Source of the DNA: a bacterium
Lineage (GTDB): Bacteria > SAR324 > XYD2-FULL-50-16 > G965216635
Direction: 5' to 3'
Assembly (NCBI GenBank): GCA_965216635.1
Contig: OZ244188.1
Coordinates: 219,205-283,204, forward strand
DNA length: 64,000 nt
In this document: positions 11,257 to 42,601 of the stretch, in pieces
How positions within the stretch are numbered: position 1 is the first letter of the stretch
Layout of the letters: each line of letters starts with the position of its first letter
Position numbers and translations under genes: made by a program
The notes under the pieces: generated by a model
The model's database searches: none
Told to the model about the DNA's origin: nothing
Seen by the model: the letters and a program-made list of their open reading frames with translations, nothing else

Positions 11257-11268
11257 TTAAAATTATTT

Positions 11269-14762: not shown

Positions 14763-14968
14763 ACTTTTGCATTTGCATTCTGTTTAGCCTATGCAGCGTT
14801 GAAAATTTTTTTTAACTCTTGAAATACTTCAGTATTCCAGCGAGCTAAAAAAAATTTTCGCACCTGTTCTAACCATTTGGCTAGCCGTCACATAACGCAA
14901 ATTCAAAGGTCTATAATAGACTGTCGTATTTGCATTCTGTTTAGCCAATGCAGTGTTAAAAAAAATTT
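14761..14968. mobile_element. Composite MITE-like repeat between mtaB-like gene and hemH
   Basis: agacttttgcatttgcattctgtttagcctatgcagcgttgaaaa...accatttggctagccgtcacataacgcaaattcaaaggtctat, plus a second half-copy. Its read-through translation (SRHITQIQRS) produced the artificial N-terminal extension of track ORF 14877. Confidence 0.7.
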
Positions 14969-16118: not shown

Positions 16119-16231
16119 ATAAAAAAGGAGCAGAAAAAATAAAAAAAACTGCCAATAGCCACTAAGTACTATTGACAAGAAGGTGTTTTTCTGTAATTAT
16201 TCTTTATAAAGGATAAGCAGAAAAAATAAAA

Positions 16232-16371
16232 AACTTTTGAATTAGCGTTCTGTTTAGCCTATGCAGCGTTAAAAAAAAATTTTAACTCTTGAAATATTAC
16301 ATATATTCCTGCGAGCTAAAATTTTTTTTTGCCTTGCCTAGCCGTCACATAACGCAAATTCAAAGGTCTAT
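16232..16371. mobile_element. MITE-like repeat (about 140 bp)
   Basis: aacttttgaattagcgttctgtttagcctatgcagcgtt...ttgccttgcctagccgtcacataacgcaaattcaaaggtctat; nearly identical to 28938-29080. Confidence 0.75.
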
Positions 16372-16459
16372 AAAAAACTGCCAACAACCAATAGTTTGCT
16401 ATTATTGTTTTTTTCTGCTAATTTTTATTTTAATACTAACATTTTCATTACAAATAATT

Positions 16460-17944: not shown

Positions 17945-18577
17945 ATGTATCAAAAAAAAGTTTATTTTTTAATTCTTTTGGTTGGGTTTTTCAGCACTTC
18001 TTTAGTTTTTAGCTGGGATAAGGAGTTTTTTGAAAATATTGAGCAACCTATTGCATTTCCTCATAAACTGCATACCGTCAACAATGGTATAAGCTGTGAG
18101 TATTGCCATTCTTCGGCTCGTAATTCTATAAATGCGGGAATTCCTCCCGTGAGAACCTGTATCGGCTGTCATGCTTTAGTAAAAGGTCGTAGCGAAGAAC
18201 AGAAAAAAGAAATCCAAAAAATCACGGATTATTGGCAGAAAAAAGAGCCTATTCCTTGGAAAAAAATACACGATTTACCAGATTTTGTTTATTTTTCGCA
18301 TAAAAGACATATCAAAGCAGGTTTTGATTGCACGAATTGCCACGGAGATGTATCGGAAACCAAGACTCCTGTTCCCAAACCTCTTTATGGGAAGACTCCT
18401 TTGAGTATGGGTTGGTGTATTAGCTGTCATCTTGACGATCATCCAGTGGATAAAAATGGCAAAATAATCACTCTTCCTCGTTTGACGCGTGGGGGAATAA
18501 GGCAGTATGATAAGCCGACTCCAAAAGCGGTTGGTGTAAAAAATGGGAGTTTGGATTGTTTAGTTTGCCACAAATGA
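17945..18577 (+). CDS. actA: Alternative complex III subunit A, pentaheme cytochrome c
   Basis: Five CxxCH motifs (CEYCH, CIGCH, CTNCH, CISCH, CLVCH), N-terminal membrane anchor, position upstream of actB. Confidence 0.8.
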   Translation: MYQKKVYFLILLVGFFSTSLVFSWDKEFFENIEQPIAFPHKLHTVNNGISCEYCHSSARNSINAGIPPVRTCIGCHALVKGRSEEQKKEIQKITDYWQKKEPIPWKKIHDLPDFVYFSHKRHIKAGFDCTNCHGDVSETKTPVPKPLYGKTPLSMGWCISCHLDDHPVDKNGKIITLPRLTRGGIRQYDKPTPKAVGVKNGSLDCLVCHK

Positions 18578-18637
18578 GAATCTTTGAATTAGATATTAAA
18601 CTTTGCATAACGCTAAAGATTTTAATAAAATAGAAAA

Positions 18638-20014
18638 ATGAAATATTTAAGTTTTTCATTAGAAAATTATAAAGGGATTAAAAAATTTTCAATTAATGTG
18701 GATCCAAACCAACCTATCTCGCTGGTAGGATTGAACGAGAGCGGTAAAACTACTATTTTAGAAGGTATAGACCATATAGGAAAACATTGTAAGCAATTAT
18801 CAACAAATAAGTTTCGGCAATTACTGAATAATGGAGAATTGGCAAAAGTAAGACCAAAAAAATTACCAGGTGTTTTTTTTAGTGATGAGATTAAATTTGC
18901 GTGTAAAGTTGTATGTGAAGAAAAAGTTTGCGAAATATCTTTTATCTATACTTTAGAAAAAGATAAAACCGCAGGCTACAAAGTGTTTTTTGATAAAGAG
19001 GAATTGAATTTTAAAGATGCTGATGTATTGGAAAAAATAAATAAATTTAGCGAAGAAATGCCAGAAATTATTTATTATTCTGATTTTACTCTTGAAGTTC
19101 CTCAAGAAATATTTTTTCATACAAATACTTATAAAAAAAAACAAACTCCAGGTATGTTGGCAAGTTTAGAAAGAGAAAATAAGAAATCCAATAACCCAGA
19201 ATGGCAAAAAATTTTACAGGATATAACGGATTCTCTATATTCTGAGGACGAAAAAGTGCTTTTTCAAGATGATATTGTAGATTATTTGGACGGTGACAAT
19301 ACTGGGGATGAAAATAGTTTTAGGGATAAGTTAACAGGTTTTAGCAGACATATAAACCAAAAAATCACCAAAAAATGGTTGCAAAGCCTACCAAAAAAAT
19401 CTTCTTTAAAAGAAATTGAATTTGTTTGTAATACAATGGAAAAAAATGCAAACACAAGAGAGTTTGCTTTTAAAGTTATCTCTAATGATGACGCTACATT
19501 TGATTTATCGGACAGATCTAAAGGCTGTAGGTGGTTTTTTGCTTTTATGTTATTTACAGAGTTTAGAAAATATAGAAAACAAAATACAATTTTTTTATTA
19601 GATGAGCCTGCTTCTAATTTACACTCTTATGTTCAAGAAAAAGTTATCCACGCTATTAATGAATTATGCGACGAAAAGACAGGCTCTATTGTTTTATATT
19701 CTACCCACTCTCCTTATTTACTAGATATAGAAAACGTAGAAACTATGTATCTTGTAGAAAATATCAATGCCTCTTCTGAGGTTAGGGAAGCAAGAATAGA
19801 AGTCAATTTATACACAGAAAACACTCGGGCAAGCAAGAAAGGAGAAGCGAAACCTATCTCTGATTATTTTCAGTTAAACTTGCAAAAAGTAATGAAATAT
19901 TTTGAAAAAAAAAATACTCCTAAAAAAATCGGAGCTATTGGTAAAAAATTTTTAGAAAATACAAGAAATATTAAAAATATAGCAGATGTGATTGAGTTTT
20001 CTAAGAATTTGTAA
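18638..20014 (+). CDS. Standalone ABC/OLD-family-type ATPase (AAA_15/AAA_21-like) inserted between actA and actB
   Basis: Walker A LVGLNESGKTTILEGI at the N-terminus; Walker B/D-loop IFLLDEPASNLH and H-loop YSTHSPYLLD near the C-terminus; no nuclease domain evident; 458 aa. Confidence 0.6.
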   Translation: MKYLSFSLENYKGIKKFSINVDPNQPISLVGLNESGKTTILEGIDHIGKHCKQLSTNKFRQLLNNGELAKVRPKKLPGVFFSDEIKFACKVVCEEKVCEISFIYTLEKDKTAGYKVFFDKEELNFKDADVLEKINKFSEEMPEIIYYSDFTLEVPQEIFFHTNTYKKKQTPGMLASLERENKKSNNPEWQKILQDITDSLYSEDEKVLFQDDIVDYLDGDNTGDENSFRDKLTGFSRHINQKITKKWLQSLPKKSSLKEIEFVCNTMEKNANTREFAFKVISNDDATFDLSDRSKGCRWFFAFMLFTEFRKYRKQNTIFLLDEPASNLHSYVQEKVIHAINELCDEKTGSIVLYSTHSPYLLDIENVETMYLVENINASSEVREARIEVNLYTENTRASKKGEAKPISDYFQLNLQKVMKYFEKKNTPKKIGAIGKKFLENTRNIKNIADVIEFSKNL

Positions 20015-20045: not shown

Positions 20046-23000
20046 ATGTCCCATAATAATATTAAAAACAACAAAATAAAAAGAAGAGATTTTTTCAAAA
20101 TAGCTGCGACCAGTGGCGCTGCTGTAGCTGTAGCCAGCTGTAATAATGACCCTGTAGAAAAAATACTCCCTTCTTTATTGCCTCCAGACAATTACCAAAC
20201 TGGTGTAGCTTTACATTTTGCTTCTGTATGCCAAGAATGTCCTTCTCAGTGCGGCATAGTAGTCAAAACTCGCGAAGGTAGGGCTATTAAAATTGAAGGC
20301 AACCCTAATCACCCTCTCAATCAAGGCAAACTTTGTGCTATAGGACAATCTGCTTTGCAAGGTTTATACAGTCCTAATCGCATTAAAAAAGCGACCCAAA
20401 AAGGCAAACAGCTAGATTTAGCAACAGCCAAAAACGAATTTTATGGCAAAATAAAACGTCTAGTCGCAGAAAACAGAGGCAAAGAAATTCTGTTTATTAG
20501 CCCCGCTGGAGATAGCAGTCTGCAAAGAATGACTACTAAAATTATTTCCCGTCTTGGAGCCTCCCAAATTCAGTTGGACTTGAGTTCTGCTAATTCCATC
20601 AAAAACGCAAACAAAATTTTGTACGGGAAAAACGAAGTTCCAGATTACCAATTTTCAAAAGCAAACTTTTTACTCAATTTTGGAGCAGATTTTTTGGAAG
20701 GCTGGCTTAATGTGATGAAAAATTCTAGAGAATTTGCCGAATTTCATTCTTACAAAAGAAAAAACAAAAACGAGTATGTGCATATTTCACCTCATCTTTC
20801 TACGACTGGTGTACAAGCAGACGATTGGATAAACTGCCCTTCCAAAGCAGAAGAAGCGATTGCACTCGCTTTGGTAGCCCGTCTGGCAGCTAGCAATTCT
20901 TCTCTTTCTGCAGCGGAAAAAAGGATTATCCGTAGCTATACTAAAAACCACAACATTGCCGCTGTGGCGAAAAAATACCAGCTAGATGCAAAAAAATTAG
21001 AGCAGATTGCCAAAAAACTAGCTACTAAAAGTAGCCTGATTATTGGAGGCGGTAATGCTACTTCCAACGGAGAGCAAACAAAACTGCAAATAGCGATTGC
21101 TCTTTTGAACTATCTTACTGGAAATACAAATCTAAACTTTGGAGCAGATTATAAATTTGGAGGCAGTAGCTTTGCAGAAATCAAGAAGGCTGTTCAAAAA
21201 ATAAAAAATAAAAAATATAGCCTAGTCGTAATTTTAGAGTTAAACCCTGCTTATATTTTTTCTATTTTCTCCGAATGGTCGGATAAAAAAGAAATTCAAG
21301 GAAAAGTTCCCATAGTGAGTTTGTCTCTGTCTCATAGCGAGACCACCGAGCAAGCGGATTTAGTAATTCCCATCACTTCCAGTTTTGAAAATTGGGGAGA
21401 TAGTTTTGCTGCCAATGGAATTTACGCTTTGCAGCAACCAGTAATGGCAAAGTTGCCGGGTTTTGAAGCAGAGCCTTTGGGAGATATTTTGCTTGGTTTG
21501 ACAAAAGAATTAGGCTGGAGCGGAGATAATTTTGAAGCTGCTGATTTTAAAAATTATTTAAGAAGTCAATGGAGAGGGCTACAAACCCAACTGAAATATG
21601 TAGGCACTTTTGAAATGTTTTGGATAGCTGCTTTGAAAAAAGGAGGGATTTTTCAAAATTATACTCCACAAAGAGCGAGTTTAAAAACCAATGCTTTGGC
21701 ACAGCTTAACGCTAGCGAAACAAAAACAGCTAAAGGCATTTCTTTAATGGTCCTAAATTCTAATTTGCATTCTAACGACGGCAGAACGGGGGATAGATAC
21801 TGGCTTTTAGAAATTCCCCATCCTTTAACGCAGGTCGTTTGGGATTCTTGGCTAGAAATTAACCCCGATAAAGCACAAGAATTAGGTATTCAACATTTAG
21901 ACGAAGTGGAAGTTACTACTTCTGCGGGCAGTGTCAAATTAGCTGCCTATATTTATGATTTTATAGATAAAAATACAGTTGCCATTCCAGCGGGCATGGG
22001 TAGAAGTTTGAAATTTCCTAACTATTCTTCCAGAAGAAACAGTATTTTACCATTCAAAGGTGGGCATAAAAGGACAAACCTTGTAGAAAAAAAGGTAGGC
22101 TTGAATCCTTTTGAATTGATTCCTTTTGCGACTGATGATTCTGGAGAGCTGATTTTTTCTGCAGAAAATATTAGTCTTAAAAAGACTGGAAAAAAATCTT
22201 TTTTGGTCAGCAGCGATGGGCAGTATAAAGACGATTCCAAAGCTCTTATTGCTGATACACCTACTGGTTACGGAGATAGAAGCCAAAAAGGAAGGCATTT
22301 GATTAGGTCAGTTTCTTTGAAGGAATTGAATTCTGGCAAAATCCACAAAGAAGGACACCAACTCAAAGATAGATTTTATACTACCGATAGACAAAACACC
22401 CACGATTTTTATAAGGAAAAAAGGGACGGTTTAGATAATCATATTTTTGGAATAAAGGGAAGTAAAACAGGAAAATACTACGACCCCTACAAGTTTGAAA
22501 TGAGTATAGATTTAGATAAATGCACGGGTTGTTCTGCTTGTGTGGTTGCCTGCTACGCCGAAAATAATATTGCAGTGGTCGGTAAAGAAAGACAGGCTAT
22601 CGGCAGGGAAATGTCTTGGCTTAGAATAGAAAGATACTTAGACAAAGATAAAAAAACCGGAAAAATCCAAGCGCTTTTATCGCCGCAGATGTGTCAACAG
22701 TGCGGCAACGCAGGTTGCGAAGCAGTCTGCCCCGTTTATGCAACTTACCACAACCCTGATGGACTCAACGCACAGATTTACAACCGTTGCGTTGGCACTA
22801 GATATTGTGCCAATAACTGCGTTTATAAACAAAGAAGATTTAACTGGAGAAGCTATAGTTTTCCATCTCCTTTGCATTACCAACTTAACCCCGATGTTAC
22901 TGTTCGCGACAAAGGAGTAATGGAAAAATGCACCTTTTGTGTGCAAAGAATTGTAGCTGCAAAAGATAAGGCTAAGGACGATAACCGAATTGTTTTTGAC

Positions 23001-23180
23001 GGAGAAATCAAAACAGCGTGTCAGCAAACCTGTCCGACAGAGGCAATTGTTTTTGGCAATGCGATGGATAAAAAATCTTTGCTTACAAAAACAAAAAAAG
23101 ATATTCGCGGCTATCACCAACTAGAAGAATTGAATTTTCAACCTGGGGTTACCTATCTCAGTAAAATAAAAAGAGGGTAA
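20046..23180 (+). CDS. actB: Alternative complex III subunit B (molybdopterin-oxidoreductase-like domain fused to 4Fe-4S ferredoxin domain)
   Basis: Tat signal KRRDFFKIAATSGAAVAVASC. 1044 aa. C-terminal Cys clusters CTGCSACVVAC, CQQCGNAGCEAVCP, CVGTRYCANNC and CTFCVQRI. Confidence 0.85.
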   Translation: MSHNNIKNNKIKRRDFFKIAATSGAAVAVASCNNDPVEKILPSLLPPDNYQTGVALHFASVCQECPSQCGIVVKTREGRAIKIEGNPNHPLNQGKLCAIGQSALQGLYSPNRIKKATQKGKQLDLATAKNEFYGKIKRLVAENRGKEILFISPAGDSSLQRMTTKIISRLGASQIQLDLSSANSIKNANKILYGKNEVPDYQFSKANFLLNFGADFLEGWLNVMKNSREFAEFHSYKRKNKNEYVHISPHLSTTGVQADDWINCPSKAEEAIALALVARLAASNSSLSAAEKRIIRSYTKNHNIAAVAKKYQLDAKKLEQIAKKLATKSSLIIGGGNATSNGEQTKLQIAIALLNYLTGNTNLNFGADYKFGGSSFAEIKKAVQKIKNKKYSLVVILELNPAYIFSIFSEWSDKKEIQGKVPIVSLSLSHSETTEQADLVIPITSSFENWGDSFAANGIYALQQPVMAKLPGFEAEPLGDILLGLTKELGWSGDNFEAADFKNYLRSQWRGLQTQLKYVGTFEMFWIAALKKGGIFQNYTPQRASLKTNALAQLNASETKTAKGISLMVLNSNLHSNDGRTGDRYWLLEIPHPLTQVVWDSWLEINPDKAQELGIQHLDEVEVTTSAGSVKLAAYIYDFIDKNTVAIPAGMGRSLKFPNYSSRRNSILPFKGGHKRTNLVEKKVGLNPFELIPFATDDSGELIFSAENISLKKTGKKSFLVSSDGQYKDDSKALIADTPTGYGDRSQKGRHLIRSVSLKELNSGKIHKEGHQLKDRFYTTDRQNTHDFYKEKRDGLDNHIFGIKGSKTGKYYDPYKFEMSIDLDKCTGCSACVVACYAENNIAVVGKERQAIGREMSWLRIERYLDKDKKTGKIQALLSPQMCQQCGNAGCEAVCPVYATYHNPDGLNAQIYNRCVGTRYCANNCVYKQRRFNWRSYSFPSPLHYQLNPDVTVRDKGVMEKCTFCVQRIVAAKDKAKDDNRIVFDGEIKTACQQTCPTEAIVFGNAMDKKSLLTKTKKDIRGYHQLEELNFQPGVTYLSKIKRG

Positions 23181-23231
23181 ACATCAAATTTTGCCTATGC
23201 TTTGTCTAACGCCTAATTTAAAAATAAAAAA

Positions 23232-23921
23232 ATGGTAGAAGTGAATCTAGAACACAAATCGGATGAGCAATTTGATAAAGAGTTGAGTGAAAAAAAAGTT
23301 ACCCCTAACCTACAAAATATAGGTTATTTACCTTGGATTGGAAAGGATTATGCTGACTTGCCTGACAAAAATAAAATTTTTATTCTTGGCGAAAGTGTTT
23401 ATAATGGTTGGAATCCTGATAAAAACGCTTCTAGAGATATAATAAATGGTCACGCAATAAAGACAAATCCTAGTCGTCTTTTTAGAAATATGAGTTGGGC
23501 TATTTGTGGAGAAAAAAAAAAGAAAGAGTTAAATCCAAAAGAGTTTTGGAGTAAAGTTTGTTTTAATAATTTGGTGCAAACTAAAATGAAAACTAAGAAG
23601 TATAGACCTTCTACAAGTGATTATGAAAATGGAACTGAATATATTGCAAAACAAATAGATATATTAAAACCTGCTTTAGTTATTTGTTTTAATAATTCGG
23701 ATGTAGCTAATTCTTTTAAAGAAATATTTGCTGACGCTAAATTAGAAGTTAAAGAAAAAGTAGGTAGAATAAAACCAAAAATACTAACAGCAAACAAGCT
23801 AAAAATATTATTTATTAAACACGCTAGTAGTTATTTTAGTTGGAGCAAATGGAATGAGTTTATAAATAAAAATGCAAAAGAAAATATTGATTGCTTTCAA
23901 TCATTAGAAAATACAAACTAA
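23232..23921 (+). CDS. Hypothetical protein (cargo between actB and actC)
   Basis: 229 aa, no confident family. Weak resemblance to uracil-DNA-glycosylase-superfamily motifs (ILGESVY...; HASSYFS). Confidence 0.3.
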   Translation: MVEVNLEHKSDEQFDKELSEKKVTPNLQNIGYLPWIGKDYADLPDKNKIFILGESVYNGWNPDKNASRDIINGHAIKTNPSRLFRNMSWAICGEKKKKELNPKEFWSKVCFNNLVQTKMKTKKYRPSTSDYENGTEYIAKQIDILKPALVICFNNSDVANSFKEIFADAKLEVKEKVGRIKPKILTANKLKILFIKHASSYFSWSKWNEFINKNAKENIDCFQSLENTN

Positions 23922-23930
23922 GTTTTAAAA

Positions 23931-24062
23931 TTAAAAAATGCTAACCTACGAAAAAATTGATAATGATTTTTTATAATTTATGCTAGAATGTATTTTTAAT
24001 AAACTAAAAAACCAAAATGAATAAAACTATAATCACTTTTTGCGATAAAGGAGGCGGACTGC
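23931..24062. repeat. Duplicated actC 5' end (about 35 bp incl. ATG) plus about 95-bp element-end sequence, copy 1
   Basis: aaaaaatgctaacctacgaaaaaattgataatgat + tttttataatttatgctagaatgtatttttaat...gcgataaaggaggcggactgc; compare real actC start at 27583-27620. Confidence 0.8.
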
Positions 24063-24139
24063 CTTAAAACTAAATTTTGTGCTTTTAAAATTAAAGTTAT
24101 AGACTGTGCTATACTGCAAAATAAAAGATAAATATTATT

Positions 24140-24619
24140 ATGGAAAAACAAAATGTATTGAGTGTGGCGGATTTTTTTATCACAGAAGTTGATAAAAAGT
24201 ATGGTGTAGATAATTTAAAATTAAACAAAATAGCCTATATCTCTTTAGGATTTTCACTATCTATACGGAATTTTGATTTATTTTCTGAAGATGTAGAAGC
24301 TTGGAATTGGGGTCCGGTAATTCCAGAATTGTATTATTCTTTTAAAGAATATGGCTCTAGGATTATTACTAAGCCTTCTGAAAGAGAAAATTCAAGTGAG
24401 ATAAAAGATGAAGATACTTTGGGTTTGTTGAATCTAGTAAAAGATCTTTATCAAAGTAAGAGTGGGTTAGAAATTATGGAATTGACTCATGTAAAAAACA
24501 CACCTTGGGATTATTGTTATGATGGAGAAAAAAATACAATTATAGATAAGAATATTATTAAAGATTACTATGATATTCTTATAAAAAACTTAAAAAAAAG
24601 TAATATTCTTATAGATTAG
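24140..24619 (+). CDS. Panacea-domain (DUF4065, SocA/PanA-like) antitoxin
   Basis: AWNWGPVIPELYYSFKEYGS matches the W.GPV....Y hallmark of DUF4065. Paralogous to the 195-aa protein at 39866..40453 (shared NLKLNKIAY, EAW.WGPVIPE.Y). Confidence 0.7.
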   Translation: MEKQNVLSVADFFITEVDKKYGVDNLKLNKIAYISLGFSLSIRNFDLFSEDVEAWNWGPVIPELYYSFKEYGSRIITKPSERENSSEIKDEDTLGLLNLVKDLYQSKSGLEIMELTHVKNTPWDYCYDGEKNTIIDKNIIKDYYDILIKNLKKSNILID

Positions 24620-24623
24620 TTTT

Positions 24624-25031
24624 ATGGTAAAATGTAATACTAAAGAAAAATTTTTATACTCAAAAGTTAGTGATGATAGTTCTGTAAGTGAATCCAAAGA
24701 AAAATTTAAAGCATCTGCTCCGATCAAGACAGAGATAAGTAAAGAATTTGAAGAGACGATAAGTAAAGAATTTGAATTGCTATATAACAATAGATTTAAA
24801 CAAGATACAGAATTAAGTAAAGATTTCTTTTACTTTGCTAAAGAAATTACTGGTTGGTGGATATTGATTTTATTTATAGTCTTATTGTGGCAATTATTTT
24901 TACCATTTGAAGGATACGGACAACGACTTTCTGATATTCAATTTTCTGTATTATTCAGCACTACTACTGTAACAGTGCTTGGTTTTTGGGGAATAGTTGG
25001 TTTGTATTTATTTCCTAAAAAAGGAAAATAA
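24624..25031 (+). CDS. Small membrane protein, candidate toxin partner of the Panacea antitoxin
   Basis: 135 aa, starts 4 bp after the antitoxin stop. Soluble charged N-terminal half, then two TM helices (WWILILFIVLLWQLF; VLFSTTTVTVLGFWGIVGLYLF). Confidence 0.45.
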   Translation: MVKCNTKEKFLYSKVSDDSSVSESKEKFKASAPIKTEISKEFEETISKEFELLYNNRFKQDTELSKDFFYFAKEITGWWILILFIVLLWQLFLPFEGYGQRLSDIQFSVLFSTTTVTVLGFWGIVGLYLFPKKGK

Positions 25032-25047
25032 AAAATAATTTTAATAA

Positions 25048-25177
25048 ACAAAAAATGCTAACTTACGCACAAATTGATAAGGATTTTTTATAATTTATGC
25101 TAGAATGTATTTTTAATGAACTAAAACCAAAATGAATAAAACTATAATCACTTTTTGCGATAAAAGAGGCGGACTGC
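25048..25177. repeat. Duplicated actC 5' end plus element-end sequence, copy 2
   Basis: aaaaatgctaacttacgcacaaattgataaggat (identical to real actC start) + ttttttataatttatgctagaatgtatttttaatgaac...gcgataaaagaggcggactgc. Confidence 0.85.
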
Positions 25178-25610
25178 AGAAAACCAGAATTTGTGATATT
25201 TTTGAAATAAGGATTGTTACTTACTCAACAGTTTAATAGCAATACTTTCAGGCGTAGAGTTATTTATTTTGACATCTGGAATTTGGATTGCTTACTCTAG
25301 TATTCAATCCCATAAAAACAGGCAAATTTAACCATTTTTGCACAAAAATCGCCTTTTTTAATTATTTAATTCTAAAAAAAAACTTTTTGTAAATGCTTTA
25401 AAAATCTTATAAAATTCCTTGAATTAAGGAAAATATTGAATTTTTGTGAAAAAAAAGTTACTATTTTAATAAATTTATTAAAAACAATAAACGGATTTTA
25501 AGACTTTTTGGGGCGGTTGTTAAGAATGGTTTTAAATTTCCTTCGTTAAAGTTTTATATCATAAAAACTAAAACAGACATATTTCTTTGTCTGTGCGTAA
25601 TAAATAAAAT

Positions 25611-26132
25611 ATGGAACAAAGAAAAGTTGAGTTTCTTTTAGAATATCAACAAAGAATAGATCAAAAAGCTAGAGAGAACTCTAGTGAGTTGATTTCTAAC
25701 GGAACCATTGAACACGCTAGAATCTTAATTGCTTCTATTTTTAGTGTTGCAAATAAAAAAATAGAAATATTTACAGGATTTCTTAATCCAATAATCTACA
25801 ATGATAAAAAAATCATTGACAGCGCCTTTAATTTTCTAAAAAAACAAAACACTAAAATAGAAGTTGTAGTGCAAGAAAATGACCACTCATTAGGTTTGAA
25901 TGAATTTGTGAATGAAGCTAAGAATAATAAACAATTTGTTCTTAAAGAAGCAAATGAAATTGATAAAAATGAACAGTATCATTTTATAGTTGCTGATAGT
26001 AAATCATTCCGTTATGAACCTGATAAAGCAAAAAATATAGGTATAGGTTGTTTTAACAAACCAGCATTTGCTGAGAAACTTAATAATCGCTTTCAAGAAA
26101 TATTTAAACAAGCAAAAACGCTGGAAATTTAA
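25611..26132 (+). CDS. Hypothetical protein (cassette cargo)
   Basis: 173 aa, no recognisable family; preceded by an about 400-bp AT-rich leader with a hairpin acagacatatttctttgtctgt. Confidence 0.35.
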   Translation: MEQRKVEFLLEYQQRIDQKARENSSELISNGTIEHARILIASIFSVANKKIEIFTGFLNPIIYNDKKIIDSAFNFLKKQNTKIEVVVQENDHSLGLNEFVNEAKNNKQFVLKEANEIDKNEQYHFIVADSKSFRYEPDKAKNIGIGCFNKPAFAEKLNNRFQEIFKQAKTLEI

Positions 26133-26147
26133 AAGAAAGAATATTCT

Positions 26148-26714
26148 ATGGATTTTTTTTATATTATAGAAATTTCTTTTTTATTAAATATAGCTTATAG
26201 AGAGCTAAAATCTTCTCGTTGGAAGCAAGAATTTGAGAAAAAATATTCTACTTATTTCAACGCATTTGAGATGACAGAATCTATTGGTAGAGATATTCTA
26301 AAAAAAGATAATCTGTTCCAACCAGAAGGAAAACAGTTTGTTGAGGGATTAGAAAAAGGGGAAAAGAATGCTTGGGAGAACAAATTTTTTATTCCTTTTT
26401 ATTACCGCAATTTTATTTGCAAAGAATGGAGTAAAAAATTTACTGGTTGTATTATATTAGGTATAATTATTATTATAGGAATATTGTATTTTTTTGCAGG
26501 ATATAATTATTATATTTACATAAAAAACACTTCCTTTGTCGCATTTTTAATCTTTTCTATGTGCCCTTTTATTTTTAGTTTTTTTGATAATCGGTGTTAT
26601 AATTATTTATTTGGTGATAATGGAAGAATAGAATTTATTATAAAAGAAATAACAAGAAAAAATAAATCTATGATGGATGATGAGCTAGATTTACCAGAAA
26701 GAGCATTAAAGTAA
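26148..26714 (+). CDS. Hypothetical membrane protein (cassette cargo)
   Basis: 188 aa; central hydrophobic segments (FTGCIILGIIIIIGILYFFAG; SFVAFLIFSMCPFIFSFF); 16 bp after the preceding ORF. Confidence 0.35.
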   Translation: MDFFYIIEISFLLNIAYRELKSSRWKQEFEKKYSTYFNAFEMTESIGRDILKKDNLFQPEGKQFVEGLEKGEKNAWENKFFIPFYYRNFICKEWSKKFTGCIILGIIIIIGILYFFAGYNYYIYIKNTSFVAFLIFSMCPFIFSFFDNRCYNYLFGDNGRIEFIIKEITRKNKSMMDDELDLPERALK

Positions 26715-26799
26715 TTAACTTACCAACCTCTTATATCCTTACCATTTTTATACCGATTCCTTAAAAATACTCTTCAATAAAAAAACAAATAAATGAAAA

Positions 26800-27048
26800 A
26801 TGGCTAGTTTAGCAGAAAAAGAGGTAGATGCAAATTTTGATTATTTTCAAACACTACTTCCAGAATTAAAACAAACTCACTTTGAAAAATTTGCTTTATT
26901 GCATAAAAAAAAAATTATTGAATTTTTTGATACTGCTAGAGATGCAGCAAAGTTTGGGATAGTAAAATTCGGAAAAGGCAATTTTTCTGTGCAACAAGTA
27001 GCTGATAGACGTGTTGATTTAGGATATCAAGGACATGTCCTCTTTTAG
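26800..27048 (+). CDS. Small hypothetical protein overlapping the downstream aspartic protease gene
   Basis: 82 aa; 14-nt overlap with 27035..27538 suggests translational coupling. Confidence 0.35.
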   Translation: MASLAEKEVDANFDYFQTLLPELKQTHFEKFALLHKKKIIEFFDTARDAAKFGIVKFGKGNFSVQQVADRRVDLGYQGHVLF

Positions 27049-27538
27049 GCAAACTTTAAATAAAAACAGGCAGTTTATTATTACTGTAAAAGTTATTGAG
27101 TCACCTTTGGAAAAAGAGAAATACAAAGACGGCACAGCACAAAGATTTCTTATTAAGGCGGAAACTCAAAAAGCTTTGATTGATACAGGTGCTAATACGA
27201 CTAGTATATCTCAAAAATATGCGAATGAATCAGGTTTAGTTGCTACTGGAAAAACCATTACAAGTACTGCTGGAGGAGATTGTAGAGAAAATTTATTTTT
27301 GATTGATATTGCTATTCCGATTACTCAAACTGCATTAAAACCTTTTACAGCAAAAGACGGTAGTCAGCAGTTTAAACCATTTATAATTGGAGAAGAACAT
27401 TGGGCTCACGCAGAACTTGAGGTTACTTCTTTTGCAGTTGGTGAAGGATATTATGGTTTTGATATTCTTTTAGGTATGGATATACTATCTCAAATGCATA
27501 TTACTATGTTTCATAATGAGATTATTATGTCTTTTTAA
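27035..27538 (+). CDS. Retropepsin-like (clan AA) aspartic peptidase
   Basis: ALIDTGANTTSIS contains the D-T/S-G-A catalytic motif in a hydrophobic-hydrophobic-D-T-G-A context; about 170 aa, typical of single-domain bacterial retropepsins. Confidence 0.55.
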   Translation: MSSFRQTLNKNRQFIITVKVIESPLEKEKYKDGTAQRFLIKAETQKALIDTGANTTSISQKYANESGLVATGKTITSTAGGDCRENLFLIDIAIPITQTALKPFTAKDGSQQFKPFIIGEEHWAHAELEVTSFAVGEGYYGFDILLGMDILSQMHITMFHNEIIMSF

Positions 27539-27588
27539 AAAATTGTAAAATTTATTACACAAGTTTTCTTAATTTTAAAAAATAAAAA

Positions 27589-28935
27589 ATGCTAACTTAC
27601 GCACAAATTGATAAGGATGTTTTAAAATCAATGGAGCCACCCGGCAAAAAATGGTTTTTGTGCATCGCAGTTTCTTTGACCGCTTTGGCTATGGGGATTT
27701 ATGCCCTTTATATCCAAGTTGCCGGAGGACTAGAGATTAGCGGAATTTCGCATCCTATTGGTTGGGGAGTTTATATTACTGACTTTGTTTTTTGGGTAGG
27801 TATTGCACACGCGGGAACCTTAATTTCTGCAGTGCTTTTTCTAACGCGAGCTCCTTACAGAACTTCTATCTATAGAACTGCAGAGGCGATGACAGTTTTT
27901 GCGGTAATGACGGCTGGGCTTTTTCCTATTATCCATGTAGGGCGGATTTGGAACGCCTACTGGTTAGTGCCTTATCCCAATCAAAGAGAGCTTTGGGTCA
28001 ATTTCAAATCTCCGCTCCTTTGGGATGTTTTTGCGGTTTCTACCTATATGTCGGTTTCCATTGCCTTTTTTATTGTAGGGTTGATTCCAGACTTTGCCAC
28101 AGTGCGAGATCGCACCAAAGGTTTGATGAAATTTTTTTACGGGTTTTTGGCATTAGGCTTTAGAGGCACCAATCACCAGTGGGTGCATTATTTGAGAGGC
28201 TACCTACTTTTTGCAGCACTGGCTACTCCTCTAGTTTTTTCCGTTCACTCCATAGTCTCTTGGGATTTTGCAATGTCTAGTATACCGGGCTGGCATACCA
28301 CAATTTTTGCTCCTTACTTTGTAGCAGGTGCGATTTTTTCGGGCTGTGCTATGGTCTTGACGATTGTGATTCCTATGAGAAAAATTTTTAGAGGCTTTGA
28401 AGAAATTATAAAAATAGAACACTTAGAGGCTTTGGGTAAACTGATTTTACTCACGGGAACGATTGTAACCTATTCTTACACCATAGAATTTTTTATTGCC
28501 TATTATAGCGGTAATCCTTACGAAAAAGCTATTTTTTGGTTTCGCCCTTTTGGAGAATTAAAGGGATTTTTCTGGTTGATGGTGCTTTGTAATTGTATTG
28601 GTCCCATTCCCCTTTGGAGAAAGAAAATTCGCACCAATCTCGCTGCTCTTTTTGTGATTTCTATTATTGTCAATGTAGGTATGTGGTTGGAAAGATTTAA
28701 CATAGTCGTCACTTCGCTGTCTCACGATTTTGTGCCTTTTGTTTGGAGCAACTACCAGTTTCAGTGGGGCGAAATTTGGATTACTATCGGTAGTTTTGGT
28801 TGGTTTTTCACTTGGTTTTTTCTATTTGTTAAAATTATGCCTTCTATGTCGGTTACAGAATTGAAGGAAGCATTGCCTCCAATGTTGCGAAAAGGTAAAA
28901 TGACACCTAGGCCAGTTTCTGGCTTCTATAAATAA
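27589..28935 (+). CDS. actC: Alternative complex III subunit C (NrfD/PsrC-like polytopic membrane subunit)
   Basis: 448 aa, about 10 TM helices, positioned between actB and actDEF. Confidence 0.8.
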   Translation: MLTYAQIDKDVLKSMEPPGKKWFLCIAVSLTALAMGIYALYIQVAGGLEISGISHPIGWGVYITDFVFWVGIAHAGTLISAVLFLTRAPYRTSIYRTAEAMTVFAVMTAGLFPIIHVGRIWNAYWLVPYPNQRELWVNFKSPLLWDVFAVSTYMSVSIAFFIVGLIPDFATVRDRTKGLMKFFYGFLALGFRGTNHQWVHYLRGYLLFAALATPLVFSVHSIVSWDFAMSSIPGWHTTIFAPYFVAGAIFSGCAMVLTIVIPMRKIFRGFEEIIKIEHLEALGKLILLTGTIVTYSYTIEFFIAYYSGNPYEKAIFWFRPFGELKGFFWLMVLCNCIGPIPLWRKKIRTNLAALFVISIIVNVGMWLERFNIVVTSLSHDFVPFVWSNYQFQWGEIWITIGSFGWFFTWFFLFVKIMPSMSVTELKEALPPMLRKGKMTPRPVSGFYK

Positions 28936-28937
28936 AT

Positions 28938-29080
28938 TAGAGACCTTTGAATTAGCGTTCTGTTTAGCCTATGCGTCGTTGAAAAAAATTTTTAACTCTT
29001 GAAATACTTGAGTATTCCTGCGAGCTAAATTTTTTTTTTGCCTTGCCTAGCCGTCACATAACGCAAATTCAAAGGTCTAT
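28938..29080. mobile_element. MITE-like repeat (about 143 bp) between actC and actD
   Basis: tagagacctttgaattagcgttctgtttagcctatgcgtcgttgaaaaa...ttgccttgcctagccgtcacataacgcaaattcaaaggtctat; clear inverted termini. Confidence 0.8.
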
Positions 29081-29097
29081 AAATTTTACTAAAAAAA

Positions 29098-37292: not shown

Positions 37293-37643
37293 TTAGGCAT
37301 TTGTTCTTTCACAGCGAATCAAAATAAAATCTGCTTTTGCTAAAGCCTTAGGTTTTAGACATTCTACTTCCAGCCATTTTAAACGAGTATCTTGAATCAA
37401 GAAATCAGCTACTTCATTCGCTAAAGTTTCTAGGAGAGAAAATTTTTTCTCTGATAAAAAGTTTTGTAACTTTTCACAAAGTTGGGAATAATCTACTGTC
37501 TGTTCTAAAGCATCTTTTTCTAGCTCTGGTTCTTTTTTCAGTCTGTATTTTAGATTAAAAACAACCCTTCTTTTTTTTTTCTGCTCCCAAGCAAAACAGC
37601 CAAGATAAACTTTTAGGGATAAGTTTTGAATTTCTACTTGCAT
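37293..37643 (-). CDS. folB: Dihydroneopterin aldolase
   Basis: 116 aa; MQVEIQNLSLKVYLGCFAWEQKKKRRVVFNL matches the FolB N-terminal GVYDWE...Q pattern and size. Confidence 0.7.
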   Translation of the reverse strand: MQVEIQNLSLKVYLGCFAWEQKKKRRVVFNLKYRLKKEPELEKDALEQTVDYSQLCEKLQNFLSEKKFSLLETLANEVADFLIQDTRLKWLEVECLKPKALAKADFILIRCERTNA

Positions 37644-37663
37644 ATTTTGAACTTTTTGAAAAG

Positions 37664-37737
37664 TAGCGATGGGGTGAATTGAACACCCGACCTTACGATT
37701 ATGAGTCGTACGCTCTAACCATCTGAGCTACATCGCC
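37664..37737 (-). tRNA. tRNA-Met (anticodon CAT; could be Ile2-lysidine type)
   Basis: Reverse complement reads GGCGATG-TA-GCTC-AGATGGTT-AGAGC-G-TACGA-CTCATAA-TCGTA-AGGTC-GGGTG-TTCAATT-CACCC-CATCGCT-A: full cloverleaf, T-loop TTCAATT, anticodon CAT. Confidence 0.85.
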
Positions 37738-37908
37738 TTTGCAATTGTTTTAGTCTAATCTGAATAATTTTCCAAGAAAAATTTTAAACAGAAATAGGAG
37801 CTTTAATACTTGGATGAAACTGATAATTTTCTAAAGCAAAATAATCAAGATAAACTTTTAGGGATAAGTTTTGAATTTCTACTTGCATATTTTAAACTTT
37901 TTGAAAAG

Positions 37909-37982
37909 TAGCGATGGGGTGAATTGAACACCCGAACTTATGATTATGAGTCGTATGCTCTAACCATCTAAGCTACATCGCC
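37909..37982 (-). tRNA. Diverged duplicate of tRNA(CAT), likely pseudo-tRNA
   Basis: Same 74 nt with 6 substitutions, including a C-A mismatch in the anticodon stem (ATACGA/TCATA). Sits in a duplicated block with a folB 5' fragment. Confidence 0.5.
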
Positions 37983-38055
37983 TTTATTTTTGAGATTTTT
38001 GAATTAACTCTATATAGATGCTAGGCAAGACGCGTGAACTCTACACAATAGCAAA

Positions 38056-38310
38056 TCAGTTATAAATATTACCTCTAAAATCTGCCTTATCAACAACAAT
38101 TTTATCGTCAAGCACATAAAAAATAAAACGAATTTTTCCGATTCGTAGCCGATAAAAACCTTTTGCCTTACCTTTAAGCATTTTTATATCTAAATTGACT
38201 TGATTGGTTTTAAAAAATTTTAAATCTTCAAGTTTTAATAAATATTTTGATGAATTCTTTAAACTACTGATAAATTTATAAACTGATTTTCTGATAATAA
38301 GGCGATACAT
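38056..38310 (-). CDS. RelE/ParE-family type II toxin
   Basis: 84 aa; ...GKAKGFYRLRIGKIRFIFYVLDDKIVV... matches the RelE/ParE G..YRLR.G.YR..Y core. Confidence 0.7.
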   Translation of the reverse strand: MYRLIIRKSVYKFISSLKNSSKYLLKLEDLKFFKTNQVNLDIKMLKGKAKGFYRLRIGKIRFIFYVLDDKIVVDKADFRGNIYN

Positions 38311-38312
38311 CT

Positions 38313-38489
38313 TTATAATTCTACAAAATCATCTTCCGTTATCTGTTTATCAAAAGCATCATTTTTATATATACTTTCAATTTCTGCTTGCTCCTTATCA
38401 GATATAAAATTGTATCTTGGGAAATATTCTTTTAGAGCATCTTGTATTAATGATTTTAATTCACTTTTTTTTATAATAACTGTATCCAT
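38313..38489 (-). CDS. Small antitoxin partner of the RelE/ParE toxin
   Basis: 58-aa ORF (MDTVIIKKSELKSLIQDALKEYFPRYNF...) not in track (<60 aa), ending 3 nt before the toxin start. Confidence 0.5.
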   Translation of the reverse strand: MDTVIIKKSELKSLIQDALKEYFPRYNFISDKEQAEIESIYKNDAFDKQITEDDFVEL

Positions 38490-38612
38490 AGTATTTTTAA
38501 TTTTATTTGGGATAGCTCTCCATTAGTTTGATTTAGATTAACCTAACCTAGCTAATTTTTAAAGTAAAAATATCAACAATTTTTGGCTTTTAAAATTTAT
38601 TTTTTTAAAGAA

Positions 38613-39446: not shown

Positions 39447-39565
39447 TTTTTATGCGATTAAACTTAAAATTTTATATTTTTTGTTTTTCTGTAAGTGGTT
39501 TGTAGACAGGATTTTTTTCTTATTTTTTTCTTGGTTAGTTTTTTAGGTATTTTTATTGTTTTTAA

Positions 39566-42569: not shown

Positions 42570-42601
42570 AATAATTTTTAAAGTTTAGGTTTATAATACT
42601 A

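Follow-up and report, generated by a model that had tools for sequence, protein, structure and literature searches.

Homology-facilitated illegitimate recombination (HFIR) has been described previously (PMC3240628), and transformation-induced tandem duplications can rescue otherwise lethal replacements (PMC3784515). Here we analyzed a 64-kb stretch of DNA (the window) in which three cargo units stand in tandem between actB and actC of the respiratory alternative complex III operon, parted by two copies of a chimeric joint, J, that repeats the start of actC. The joint formation that we propose resembles HFIR, and the array is best read as known recombination outcomes in a new variant. We consider the chances even that the actC array is a scar of recombination between alternative alleles of one hotspot and not a new mobile cassette.

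Organization of the actB-actC slot

The actA of the window is the orthologue of the gene adjacent to actB in the relatives L001, L023, L024, and L025, and the ActC of the window is 85% identical to that of L001, the nearest complete relative, and identical to P0131, which is encoded on a 2.39-Mb contig. The left border of the slot is a conserved spacer (Table 1), hairpin-like in relatives (GACATTAAA...TTTAATGTC), with homologues starting at 5436 in L025 and at 161 in L027; the window and L025 copies are 76% identical. The sequence-only reading had proposed that the actB-actC junction contains inserted DNA, and this DNA is indeed absent from the closest complete relative. In L001, the actA-actB gap is 7 nt and the actB-actC gap is 1 nt; because the three genes are contiguous there, all 4.4 kb in the window were inserted. 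Between actB and actC, L023 and L024 contain no more than ORFs of 58 aa and 36 aa, and the comparison shows an empty ancestral boundary. The inserted DNA has a GC content of 23-30%, as against 36-44% in the act genes.

All cargo between actB and actC is co-oriented with the operon. The contents previously read from the sequence, a Panacea gene with a small protein followed by four genes including one for a retropepsin-like protease, were recovered. That reading had overlooked two further insertions, a UDG-like gene preceding the first actC-start copy and an AAA_15 ATPase gene between actA and actB. The UDG-like protein gave weak matches to NCBIfam family-4 UDG models and was not found in L001, L023, L024, or L025. 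The ATPase insert (28-30% GC) fills a slot of its own, at which no gene start is duplicated. In unit 2, the Panacea protein shares 57% aa and 67% nt identity with the L025 protein encoded at 6450-6929, and the 135-aa protein, which has no Pfam match, resembles proteins encoded 3' of the L025 PanA genes (108 aa, 40%; 118 aa, 44% over 77 aa). Unit 3 begins with a 433-nt stretch that gave no Rfam match and no tblastn match to any cargo protein, and its genes (25611-27538) gave a weak match to the PADLOC model PDC-M08B. Across the window, the cargo comprises PanA with its partner, PanA with YafQ, two RM systems, GmrSD, and DarT1-NADAR, and is addictive or defensive in predicted type. The actB-actC boundary is best read as a hotspot, or slot, that holds addiction and defense-type genes in this lineage.

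Table 1. Positions of core genes, cargo, and joints in the window
Feature	Position	Strand	Basis or remark
actA, multihaem cytochrome c subunit of alternative complex III	17945-18577	+	CxxCH motifs in translation
AAA_15/AAA_21 ATPase, inserted between actA and actB	18638-20014	+	Pfam AAA_15 E = 7e-19
actB, upstream core gene of slot	20046-23180	+	Pfam Molybdop_Fe4S4, Molydop_binding, Fer4_7, TAT signal
Post-actB spacer	23181-23231	+	homologues after actB stop in relatives
Unit 1: 229-aa UDG-superfamily-like ORF	23232-23921	+	Pfam UDG E = 8e-5, under cut-off
J1 left half: actC-start copy (-18 to +30), ATG 23938	23919-23967	+	would encode MLTYEKIDNDFL, then stop
95-nt copy 1	23966-24062	+	TGCTAGAAT at 23981-23989; micro-ORF MNKTIITFCDKGGGLP with stop at 24017-24067
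Unit 2: Panacea-domain (PanA-type) antitoxin candidate	24140-24619	+	Pfam SocA_Panacea E = 1.5e-11
Unit 2: 135-aa protein, hydrophobic C-terminal half, candidate PanA toxin partner	24624-25031	+	homologous partners in L025
J2 left half: actC-start copy, ATG 25055	25036-25084	+	same as real start from -4 to +30 (34-mer)
95-nt copy 2	25085-25177	+	TGCTAGAAT at 25098-25106; disrupted micro-ORF 25132-25236
Unit 3: non-coding start, 433 nt	25178-25610	+	no ORF of at least 40 aa
Unit 3: DUF7931 protein	25611-26132	+	Pfam DUF7931 E = 1e-7
Unit 3: 188-aa membrane-like protein	26148-26714	+	
Unit 3: 82-aa protein	26800-27048	+	72% identical to L025 86-aa ORF after joint
Unit 3: retropepsin-like aspartic protease	27035-27538	+	Pfam gag-asp_proteas E = 1.6e-9
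Real actC, ATG 27589, with 18-nt upstream region; downstream core gene of slot	27570-28935	+	Pfam NrfD E = 4e-22
folB array	37589-38671	-	
folB array: tRNA-Met A	37663-37737	-	
folB array: fusion ORF	37784-37888	-	MQVEIQNLSLKVYL fused to DYFALENYQFHPSIKAPISV, then stop
folB array: tRNA-Met copy B	37908-37982	-	
folB array: two-gene TA-like cargo	38056-38489	-	
thyA array	39335-46111	-	
thyA array: real thyA start	39335-39482	-	
thyA array: YafQ-like toxin	39566-39865	-	
thyA array: PanA	39866-40453	-	
thyA array: second joint, thyA 5' to comM 3'	40724-40898	-	
thyA array: GmrSD	40866-42569	-	
thyA array: first joint, thyA 5' to comM 3'	42815-42989	-	
thyA array: RM unit, three genes	42957-46085	-	
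thyA array: comM 3' end	46082-46111	-	

Joints upstream of actC

The repeat at actC consists of about 18 nt upstream of the ATG and 30-35 nt of coding sequence and occurs three times, in register over codons 1-10 at 23919-23967, 25036-25084, and 27570-27618. All three copies are real as previously claimed, the coordinates given earlier being 2-3 nt off, which is immaterial. The exact 34-mer AAAAATGCTAACTTACGCACAAATTGATAAGGAT lies at 25051-25084 and 27585-27618, where chance would be expected to give 0 matches. Copy 1 is the more diverged, with 86% identity to the reference copy over 64 nt (23919-23982), and the four mismatches noted earlier were confirmed within the 30 coding nt compared with the real start; in relatives, actC genes that are functional differ at these positions too.

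In J, the 18 upstream nt and the first 30-35 nt or so of actC are fused to a promoter-like box and a 16-codon micro-ORF, and the overlap at the breakpoint is only about 5 nt (GTTTT). The shared stretch of about 95 nt that had been reported after both upstream copies is genuine: 23907-24062 and 25024-25177 are 90.4% identical over 156 nt, and the similarity stops at ...GGCGGACTGC (24062 and 25177). Read against the consensus TGnTATAAT, the 95 nt read as a TGn-extended -10 promoter-like box followed by a conserved 16-codon micro-ORF, while scan statistics gave no support for the box. In the CDKGGGLP part of the micro-ORF, synonymous changes number at least 7 and non-synonymous ones 0, and the micro-ORF is under peptide-level selection. 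Copy 2 of the micro-ORF has a G>R change and has lost its stop, and its similarity to copy 1 ends inside the ORF at 25177, so that this right border looks like the leftover of a duplicated unit. Of the promoter, small RNA, or att-like core to be looked for in the 95 nt, only a promoter-like box was seen; Rfam gave no match to the stretch, no inverted repeat was found in it or at the unit borders, and no fold was significant (z-scores -0.6 to +1.1).

Both halves of the 95 nt occur twice each in the window. Exact scans with a 30-mer in the genome contigs and a 27-mer in the metagenome and viral contigs gave no match, nor did a degenerate micro-ORF pattern in the metagenome and viral contigs. The right half of J is best read as belonging to the neighboring cargo unit, and it was not recognizable as the actB 3' end or as the actB-actC spacer of any relative.

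The related species L025 (88.6% nt identity in actC) shares the breakpoint (GAGGATGTTTT to TTATAACTTGTGCTATAAT) at this locus, where part of its cargo is different, and its joint and micro-ORF are 73-81% identical to those of the window at the nt level. It has cargo at every act junction, with PanA and the 118-aa protein between actA and actB. Since L025 contains homologues of the 95 nt, the stretch is not absent from related taxa, although it was found there at the orthologous locus only. The joint was not found in L026 or L027, which come from the same sample and share 97-97.5% nt identity with L025 in actC. By these comparisons, the joint is old and locus-bound, and within one species it is present in some strains and absent from others.

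Parallel arrays at thyA and folB

The architecture of a downstream gene-start piece, cargo, and the intact gene was found at three loci in the window, namely actC, thyA, and folB. In the thyA array, the comM 3' end is followed by the RM unit, a joint, GmrSD, a second joint, PanA with the YafQ-like gene, and the real thyA start; in L023, comM and thyA are 18 nt apart. The joint, in which thyA up to +101 runs into the final 26 nt of comM, was used twice with different cargo, and over 101 nt the thyA-start copies do not differ from the real start (100% identity). Between the thyA and comM sites, 17 of 21 positions agree (CTAGACAnnnAAnATTTGATT), a score reached by only 1 of 300 shuffles. Unit 2 retains the comM 3' end and 47 nt of the start of the unit-1 methylase gene (42792-42862 versus 46039-46108, 97%).

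In the folB array, the thyA 3' end is followed by the TA-like cargo, tRNA-Met B, a fusion of the folB start to the thyA 3' end, an ancestral spacer, tRNA-Met A, and the real folB start. The joint fuses folB up to +42 to the last 60 or so nt of thyA, and tRNA-Met B has one stem-disrupting change. The spacer in the empty unit has a homologue in L029, whose thyA-tRNA-folB spacer is uninterrupted, and the array stacks an occupied allele on an "empty" one. The relic copy of the thyA 3' end and the intact gene differ at four sites; at all of these the relic agrees with the outgroup, and the four changes in the intact gene are all synonymous or stop-to-stop. This weakly hints (4:0, p ~0.06) that a functional but diverged allele may be the source of one unit of the folB array.

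In these two arrays, what comes after the duplicated gene start is thus the upstream core gene's own 3' end, that of comM or thyA. Because these joints use the 3' end of their own upstream gene, the units carry their own hotspot flanks, as alleles would. For actC, the same statement rests on analogy with these arrays because the origin of the right half of J was not found.

Formation of the arrays

We infer the mechanism (a crossover plus an illegitimate joint), how the DNA entered, and what part addiction played. A second allele of the slot, coming from the sister chromosome or a related strain, would have been added instead of exchanged: one homologous crossover would have occurred in a flanking core gene, and one illegitimate joint would have linked the far end of the incoming allele to the first codons of the downstream gene already in place. 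An intact start kept or supplied downstream would preserve actC, and the truncated copy would stay upstream. The actC-start copy in J could then serve as 49 nt of portable homology; by recombining unequally, through homology, with another J or with the start of the real actC, it would duplicate or import units. Most of a duplicated unit would be replaced by new cargo, the 95 nt or so being what is left of the older unit at its left end. Addictive cargo may favor addition over replacement: many of the cargo genes belong to TA or RM modules, outcomes deleting these would be counter-selected, and a joint would survive only if it lay beyond all resident cargo on the right, in the first codons of the downstream gene. 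Counting against such stacking of alleles, a homology of 49 nt is on the short side for RecA to exchange efficiently, the overlap at the actC breakpoint is small, and the reuse of a joint with different cargo, together with micro-ORF selection, would also fit a functional, conserved cassette boundary.

A purely local tandem duplication, in which illegitimate exchange between sister strands joined the 5' end of the downstream gene to an upstream point with no import, followed by slow decay of the copies and piecemeal turnover of their genes, is an unlikely origin. The joints do have the classic downstream-fused-to-upstream form, leftovers of the neighboring unit lie at the left end of each later unit, the thyA-start copies are unchanged, and the stem-disrupting change in tRNA-Met B is as expected of a redundant copy. 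However, the units have no cargo in common, so that each would need a separate later gene gain, and the cargo differs from the core genes in GC content. Furthermore, the folB-array relic is unchanged while the functional thyA end carries all four changes, all silent; occupied and empty alleles adjoin; and the actC copy of J1 has variants of functional actC genes of relatives.

We regard as somewhat less probable still that the units are dedicated integrative cassettes, that is, small recombinase-less circular units inserted by a site-specific recombinase that is encoded elsewhere and recognizes the first codons of target genes, each unit bringing along a replacement for the gene start and having a conserved end, the 95 nt at actC, as its recombination site. 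In its favor, the same joint recurs with different cargo, in two copies in the window and one in L025, the joint and micro-ORF are conserved at least as well as the Panacea cargo, the cargo is all co-oriented with the operon, and there are three arrays in 64 kb, polymorphic within a species. On the other hand, the joints of the three arrays have no sequence in common, two of them using the 3' end of the upstream core gene, and the gene-start pieces are unequal (about 49, 148, and 152 nt) and have no common core. The borders have no inverted repeat, fold, or RNA family, the 95 nt are unmatched in the genome, metagenome, and viral scans, and their similarity stops inside a disrupted ORF. One folB unit has no cargo, and a cargo-driven cassette would not stack an occupied unit on an empty one. 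No recombinase was recognized among the window ORFs, on part of which Pfam was run; one acting in trans from elsewhere in the 2.39-Mb genome is possible. The sequence-only reading had proposed a family of integrative cassettes that target gene starts and carry a replacement 5' end, with the 95 nt as an element end. The architecture holds at the three window loci and at actC of L025, but the ends differ between arrays and lack att-like features, and the 95 nt, confined to the actB-actC locus and missing from the thyA and folB arrays, are no common element end. As for the replacement 5' end, incoming DNA supplying a gene end is compatible with the data, whereas a cassette family with a common end or att site found no support.

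An assembly artefact, in which the assembler concatenated alternative alleles of a strain-variable hotspot, is very improbable: the hotspot is strain-variable in the related population and contigs of the L025 sample are visibly chimeric fold-backs, but the joints lie at microhomologies of 5-17 nt, too short for graph or overlap mis-joins, the copies have diverged from one another through substitutions and indels (86-97% identity), an independent assembly of another species contains a homologous joint, and at all three loci the joint sequences show internal consistency. As a point against the recombination between hotspot alleles that we favor, the three arrays in 64 kb and the cargo at every act junction of L025 suggest an unusually active process.

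The actC array

The start of actC stands three times at the boundary (slot) between actB and actC in the alternative complex III operon. An exact 34-mer around the start codon is present at 25051 and 27585 (none expected by chance), and a third copy with four mismatches lies at 23919-23982, which bears out the threefold gene start described in the sequence-only reading. The stretch of about 95 nt that it saw behind both upstream copies, and took for an element end, is real as well: 23907-24062 and 25024-25177 match at 90.4% identity, and this stretch is found nowhere else in the window. The cargo that it listed for its two blocks, here units 2 and 3, was confirmed; absent from it were a UDG-like ORF, which makes up unit 1, and an AAA_15 ATPase gene at the actA-actB boundary. 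The G + C content of the inserted DNA is 23-30%, compared with 36-44% for the act genes, and the cargo genes are read in the same direction as the operon. No cargo protein of one unit is related to a cargo protein of another, and the only sequence that the units have in common is 51-156 nt at their left ends. The units both here (actC starts at 23919, 25036 and 27570) and in a second array at thyA (thyA starts at 39335, 40751 and 42842) lie between direct repeats that come from the target gene. The spacer directly behind the actB stop codon is hairpin-like and forms a constant left border of the variable slot.

Features of the arrays and their surroundings (window coordinates unless another contig is named)
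Feature	Location	Strand	Description
actC-start repeat, in register	23919-23967; 25036-25084; 27570-27618		From about 18 nt before the ATG to codon 10
actC unit 1, UDG-like ORF	23232-23921		229 aa; between actB and the first actC-start copy
actC unit 2			Panacea-domain protein (PanA-type antitoxin candidate; Pfam PF13274 Panacea (DUF4065), E = 1.5e-11), then conserved small hydrophobic partner
actC unit 3			Uncharacterised four-gene block: DUF7931, membrane-like protein, 82-aa protein, retropepsin-like protein (weak PADLOC PDC-M08B match on the protease)
AAA_15 ATPase gene	18638-20014		Inserted at the actA-actB boundary
Hairpin-like spacer	23181-23217; L025 5436-5472; L027 161-197		Conserved, directly 3' of the actB stop; GACATTAAA...TTTAATGTC in relatives
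Micro-ORF copies	24017-24067; 25132-25236; L025 about 5515-5565 and 6277-6333		Ends in CDKGGGLP; window copy 1 MNKTIITFCDKGGGLP then stop, copy 2 disrupted; L025 ...IIITSCDKGGGLP then stop, and MNKIIIIACDKGGGLPSR then stop
L025 actA-actB cargo	L025 1495-2317		PanA and 118-aa partner; flanked by a 14-15-nt actB-start duplication (AAATTAAAATGAATA)
L025 actB-actC cargo			Four genes
L025 actC-actD cargo	L025 8639-9980		N6_N4 methylase and 188-aa protein
thyA array cargo			Two N6_N4 methylases and DpnII-like nuclease; GmrSD enzyme; PanA and YafQ-like toxin
folB array	37589-38671	minus	Absent from the sequence-only reading
Duplicated tRNA-Met	37663-37737; 37908-37982	minus	In the folB array
folB-thyA fusion ORF	37784-37888	minus	tRNA-Met copy and first 42 nt of folB in frame with the last ~60 nt of thyA
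folB unit next to thyA	38056-38489	minus	Two-gene TA-like cargo
DarT1 and NADAR pair	62400-63633	minus	ssDNA ADP-ribosyltransferase and antitoxin
AAA_15-type gene relic and 58-nt tandem duplication	52887-53096; 53136-53276		C-terminal part, after leuS; 35% identity over 68 aa to the actA-actB cargo
Palindromic repeat copies	2754-2958; 11000-11281; 14756-14968; 16226-16380; 28934-29085; 42597-42667; 57023-57167; 63859-63989		And others
Short tandem repeats	53254-53397; 48185-48268; 49692-49793; 10331-10486		Periods of 18, 12, 14 and 39 nt, respectively

The act and thyA boundaries in relatives

The closest ActC in the species-genome collection, with 85% amino acid identity, is that of L001, followed by those of SAR324-cluster MAGs. 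A Bacteroidota origin, which the low G + C content might have suggested, was rejected on the strength of these relatives. An ActC-type protein (P0011) that is 77% identical to that of the window and fused to ferredoxin-type (4Fe-4S) domains is also found in an assembly of the freshwater mussel Potamilus streckersoni, and the lineage may be animal-associated. Comparison of the actB-actC junction among relatives, as the sequence-only reading had proposed, gave an interval of 1 nt in L001 (7 nt between actA and actB), a single ORF of 58 aa in L023 and of 36 aa in L024, and a joint, that is, a truncated copy of the downstream gene start fused to other sequence, in L025. The distance between comM and thyA in L023 is 18 nt. 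Because these genes are nearly contiguous in L001, L023 and L024, window positions 23181-27569 and the entire comM-thyA interval are taken as inserted. Comparable direct repeats were not found in the act regions of L001, L023, L024 and the SAR324 MAGs.

L025 is a 13-kb contig from a related species, with nucleotide identities to the window of 88.6% in actC and 82.4% in actB, and it has cargo at every act boundary. Its actB-actC interval contains one actC-start copy (5910-5950), 95% identical to its own real start, and the breakpoint is the same in both genomes (between GAGGATGTTTT and TTATAACTTGTGCTATAAT in L025; AAGGATTTTTTATAATTTATGCTAGAAT in the window). Identity between the two is 73-75% at the joint, 76-81% in a micro-ORF behind it and 81-89% in the core genes; PanA is 67% identical in nucleotides and 57% in protein. 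The joint is therefore older than the split of the two lineages, or else was transferred between them. Contigs from the same sample whose actC is 97-97.5% identical to that of L025 carry an ORF of 87-89 aa between actB and actC without the joint, so the array is polymorphic within one species. L022, L026, L027, L028 and L029 (sample ERZ26869290) are fold-back chimeras with long inverted duplications, from which only local gene order was used. At the actC-actD boundary, L028 has a MORN-like protein (5108-5674) and the window only a palindromic repeat element (28934-29085).

The 95-nt stretch

The sequence-only reading had suggested looking for a small RNA, a promoter or an att-like core in the 95 nt, and of these a promoter-like box could be read. 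The first half contains a TGn-extended -10-like box by comparison with the TGnTATAAT consensus, although a generic scan does not place it above chance: sigma-70 and terminator scanning of the region returned 23 promoter-like sites against 25 expected from shuffles. Such -10-like boxes follow each joint (TGCTAGAAT in the window; TGCTATAAT in L025). No structured RNA was recognized, with no Rfam match at E <= 1 and folding no better than that of shuffles (z-scores of -0.45, -0.60, +0.32 and +1.09), nor was any inverted repeat seen in 23919-24070 or 25036-25185.

The second half is a micro-ORF, of which four copies were found, every one at the actB-actC slot. Over the last eight codons, the three intact copies show at least seven synonymous and no non-synonymous differences, a pattern which argues that the peptide, or its source, is under selection. 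It is this conserved micro-ORF that leaves room for a more novel reading. In L025, an 86-aa gene, 72% identical to the 82-aa gene of the window, stands between the promoter half and the micro-ORF, and ATAAAATCAAAATGAAT precedes both that gene and the micro-ORF; the 95 nt of the window may therefore be a deletion product between the two short ATAAAATCAAAATGAAT repeats. Similarity between the two window copies stops two codons before the micro-ORF stop, where copy 2 is disrupted.

Several possible sources of the stretch were rejected. Smith-Waterman alignment with the actB ends of the window and L001 scored no better than shuffles or random windows, similarity to the actB-actC spacer or mini-ORFs of L023, L024 and L001 was not significant, and actD was not the top-scoring gene start in the window for the micro-ORF. 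The sequence-only reading held that its element-end idea would fail if the stretch were absent elsewhere in the genome or in related taxa and a simple local tandem duplication accounted for the duplicated blocks. A homologue does exist in L025, but only at the actB-actC slot; neither the thyA nor the folB array contains the stretch, and exact scans, which miss diverged copies, returned zero matches for a 30-mer in the GTDB species genomes and for a 27-mer in JGI metagenomes and IMG/VR. A degenerate micro-ORF pattern, which diverged copies would likewise escape, also had zero matches in JGI metagenomes and IMG/VR.

The thyA and folB arrays

Three copies of the first 112 nt of thyA, together with 10-36 nt of upstream sequence, make up the framework of the thyA array, which lies on the minus strand. 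Both upstream copies are followed by the 3'-terminal 26 nt of comM, stop codon included, and the genuine comM end precedes the first unit. The thyA and comM sites are alike at 17 of 21 positions, a count reached by one of 300 shuffles. Unit 2 retains the comM 3' end and 47 nt of the start of the unit-1 methylase gene (97% identity), and unit 3 the comM 3' end and ATGAAAA. Upstream of the GmrSD gene in unit 2, a promoter-like segment is tandemly duplicated (42690-42772; two copies of TATTTTATACTTGACAAAGAAGTTTTTTTGCTAAA).

In the folB array, the unit next to folB is empty and has a spacer homologous to the one that runs uninterrupted from thyA through the tRNA gene to folB in L029, from a related species. 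Since the joints fuse the thyA 5' end to the comM 3' end and the folB 5' end to the thyA 3' end, units in both arrays have the form of an upstream core gene end, a content and a downstream core gene start, and each appears to be one hotspot allele with both of its flanks. The pieces retained at actC and thyA represent what is left of a neighbouring unit and are not the termini of elements. The actC joint is a fusion of the actC 5' end with the promoter region of a cargo unit, with an overlap of only about 5 nt (GTTTT). No sequence is common to the joints of the three arrays; by eye, only TTGAT recurred, at inconsistent positions.

The thyA 3' relic in the folB array agrees with the outgroup at all four sites at which it differs from the intact gene. 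These four differences are silent, being derived in the intact gene and ancestral in the relic (p ~0.06), and give a weak hint that one folB unit came from a diverged allele. All four tRNA differences are carried by tRNA copy B, and one of them disrupts the anticodon stem. The actC variants at J1, the left one of the two actC joints, match states found in relatives.

Possible origin of the arrays

The architecture is real and recurrent at three loci, and to this extent the interpretation given in the sequence-only reading is supported; a cassette family with a common element end or att site is not, as the joints share no sequence. The evidence favours a stacking of hotspot alleles driven by homology over cassettes with ends of their own, and the simplest account for all three arrays is that another allele of the hotspot was integrated in addition to the resident one. 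The incoming DNA would cross over once by homology within a flanking core gene, and its far end would be joined illegitimately to the opening codons of the downstream gene already in place, in the manner of homology-facilitated illegitimate recombination (HFIR) as defined in PMC3240628. The array would then grow by unequal homologous recombination between the gene-start copies, with cargo replaced afterwards. The position of the joints, within the first 35-112 nt of the downstream gene, may have a selective explanation: leftward joints would be disfavoured because they would delete resident TA or RM genes, and rightward joints because they would cut the core gene short if no start came with the incoming DNA, although one does.

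Duplication purely within the genome would also leave joints of downstream sequence fused to upstream sequence, as seen between thyA and comM and between folB and thyA, but the contents of the units differ and their cargo proteins are unrelated, and we consider such an origin unlikely. The sequence-only reading had favoured dedicated cassettes, which here would be moved by a recombinase acting in trans. Several observations would suit them: different cargo stands behind copies of one and the same joint, the boundary shows conservation of its peptide, every cargo gene points the same way as the operon, and events are dense, with three arrays within 64 kb and no act boundary of L025 left free. 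However, no recombinase was recognized by eye among the window ORFs of at least 100 aa, 31 of which were profiled (Pfam, NCBIfam or PADLOC), or on the 13-kb L025 contig. Neither intI nor attI was recognized next to an array in the window, the actC boundaries have no attC-like imperfect inverted repeat, and a common attP-like arm is missing, the arm at thyA and folB being the comM 3' or thyA 3' end in place of the 95 nt; we regard such cassettes as quite improbable. An assembly artefact is highly improbable, given the homologous joint in L025 at 73-75% identity.

It is conceivable, if doubtful, that hotspot alleles are stacked regularly in this lineage, by a process on which selection can act and which amounts to an integron-like system that needs no dedicated integrase. 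Units bounded by downstream-start copies would loop out by general recombination, pass between cells and re-insert by homology at the same gene start. Addictive cargo (TA, RM) would make replacement lethal, and only additive insertions with joints in the first codons would survive, which would explain how essential operons come to accumulate genes for defence and addiction. In a variant of this process, the boundary of promoter and micro-ORF (CDKGGGLP) would itself be functional, as a regulatory leader or as a recognition site for a trans factor.

Comparison with known systems

HFIR is known from laboratory selections, in which recipient DNA is usually lost; the original work was reportedly done in Acinetobacter and pneumococcus. 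The present arrays resemble its products in having one homologous end and one microhomology end (17 of 21 positions for thyA and comM) with foreign DNA added between, but they are natural, additive, present at several loci and situated inside an essential operon. The only competence-type gene in the window is comM. Transformation-induced merodiploidy, or tandem duplication, can rescue a lethal replacement by keeping both alleles in tandem (Johnston et al., 2013; PMC3784515). Those duplications span 100-900 kb, are bordered by IS-derived repeats and involve unequal crossing-over between the repeats (PMC3784515). Tandem alleles where replacement is lethal and unequal crossing-over are shared features, although the units here measure 0.25-3.3 kb and have gene-end fragments as borders, and the lethal step would be that TA or RM cargo is lost.

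In the C-terminal displacement arrays of Rhs (and CDI) genes, modules are added beside a conserved gene part by homologous recombination, for which circular intermediates were proposed, and older modules are displaced, each behind a partial copy of the conserved part, to give an array of orphan modules (Jackson et al., 2009; PMC2935791). Addition next to a conserved part and a partial copy before each displaced module recur here, but as a mirror image, since here it is the downstream gene whose 5' start has been duplicated. Furthermore, the conserved genes are housekeeping genes (actC, thyA and folB), and the cargo consists of independent TA, RM and defence genes instead of alternative ends of one protein.

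Integrons share with the present arrays a single direction, small units (mostly of one to four genes), a fixed site, a short repeat at each boundary and a cargo rich in TA and defence genes. Integrons have intI and attI by the array, attC, an imperfect inverted repeat folded from the bottom strand, at every cassette boundary, and promoterless cassettes in one orientation. The arrays described here differ in lacking an attC-like imperfect palindrome and, within the window, intI and attI; their boundaries are copies of host gene starts, and their units appear to have promoter-like boxes of their own. In CIME/ICE accretion, islands target a gene end and restore the gene. Repeats of a target-gene fragment around the units, an intact gene at one end and units without integrase are similar here; however, no integrase was found in the window, the repeat is at the 5' end and varies in length by locus, the upstream host gene contributes its 3' end as the second half of the joint, and one of the units is empty. 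Minimal mobile elements of Neisseria place cargo between conserved genes and are exchanged by transformation and homologous recombination. They too occupy a slot between core genes with strain-alternative content and no mobility genes, but they replace one another, whereas here alleles are stacked with chimeric joints.

The stacked arrays are a fresh form of recombination outcomes already known. If the stacking account is true, clusters of defence and addiction genes can accrete with neither an integrase nor a transposase, the versions of a hotspot being summed instead of swapped, and an essential respiratory operon can be a safe harbour for such genes, every operon boundary being filled in a related strain. 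It would also provide a testable tie between addiction (TA, RM) and island growth, and the fusion of a downstream start to an upstream end would be a sequence signature for stacked hotspots in other genomes. Annotators would likewise have to reckon with short decoy gene starts, duplicated tRNAs and fusion mini-ORFs between operon genes as possible scars of recombination.

Cargo and other features of the window

Unit 2 of the actC array is a candidate PanA-PanT toxin-antitoxin pair judging from its domain and gene order. Three homologous pairs of PanA and a co-directional hydrophobic partner are present across the window and L025, and the genome of the window has at least three further paralogues of the unit-2 PanA. 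The AAA_15-type relic behind leuS is followed by a 58-nt tandem duplication of the region upstream of an outer-membrane protein gene (53281).

The intergenic palindromic repeats belong to a MITE/REP-like family of about 150 nt with the ends AGACCTTTGAATT...AATTCAAAGGTCT; one copy lies within unit 2 of the thyA array, and a degenerate piece follows actA (18578-18625). By ORF coordinates, the short tandem repeat with a period of 18 nt falls at the 5' end of the outer-membrane protein gene at 53281, that of 12 nt within folC, that of 14 nt where the PCMT gene starts, and that of 39 nt inside a 482-aa ORF at 9425-10873.
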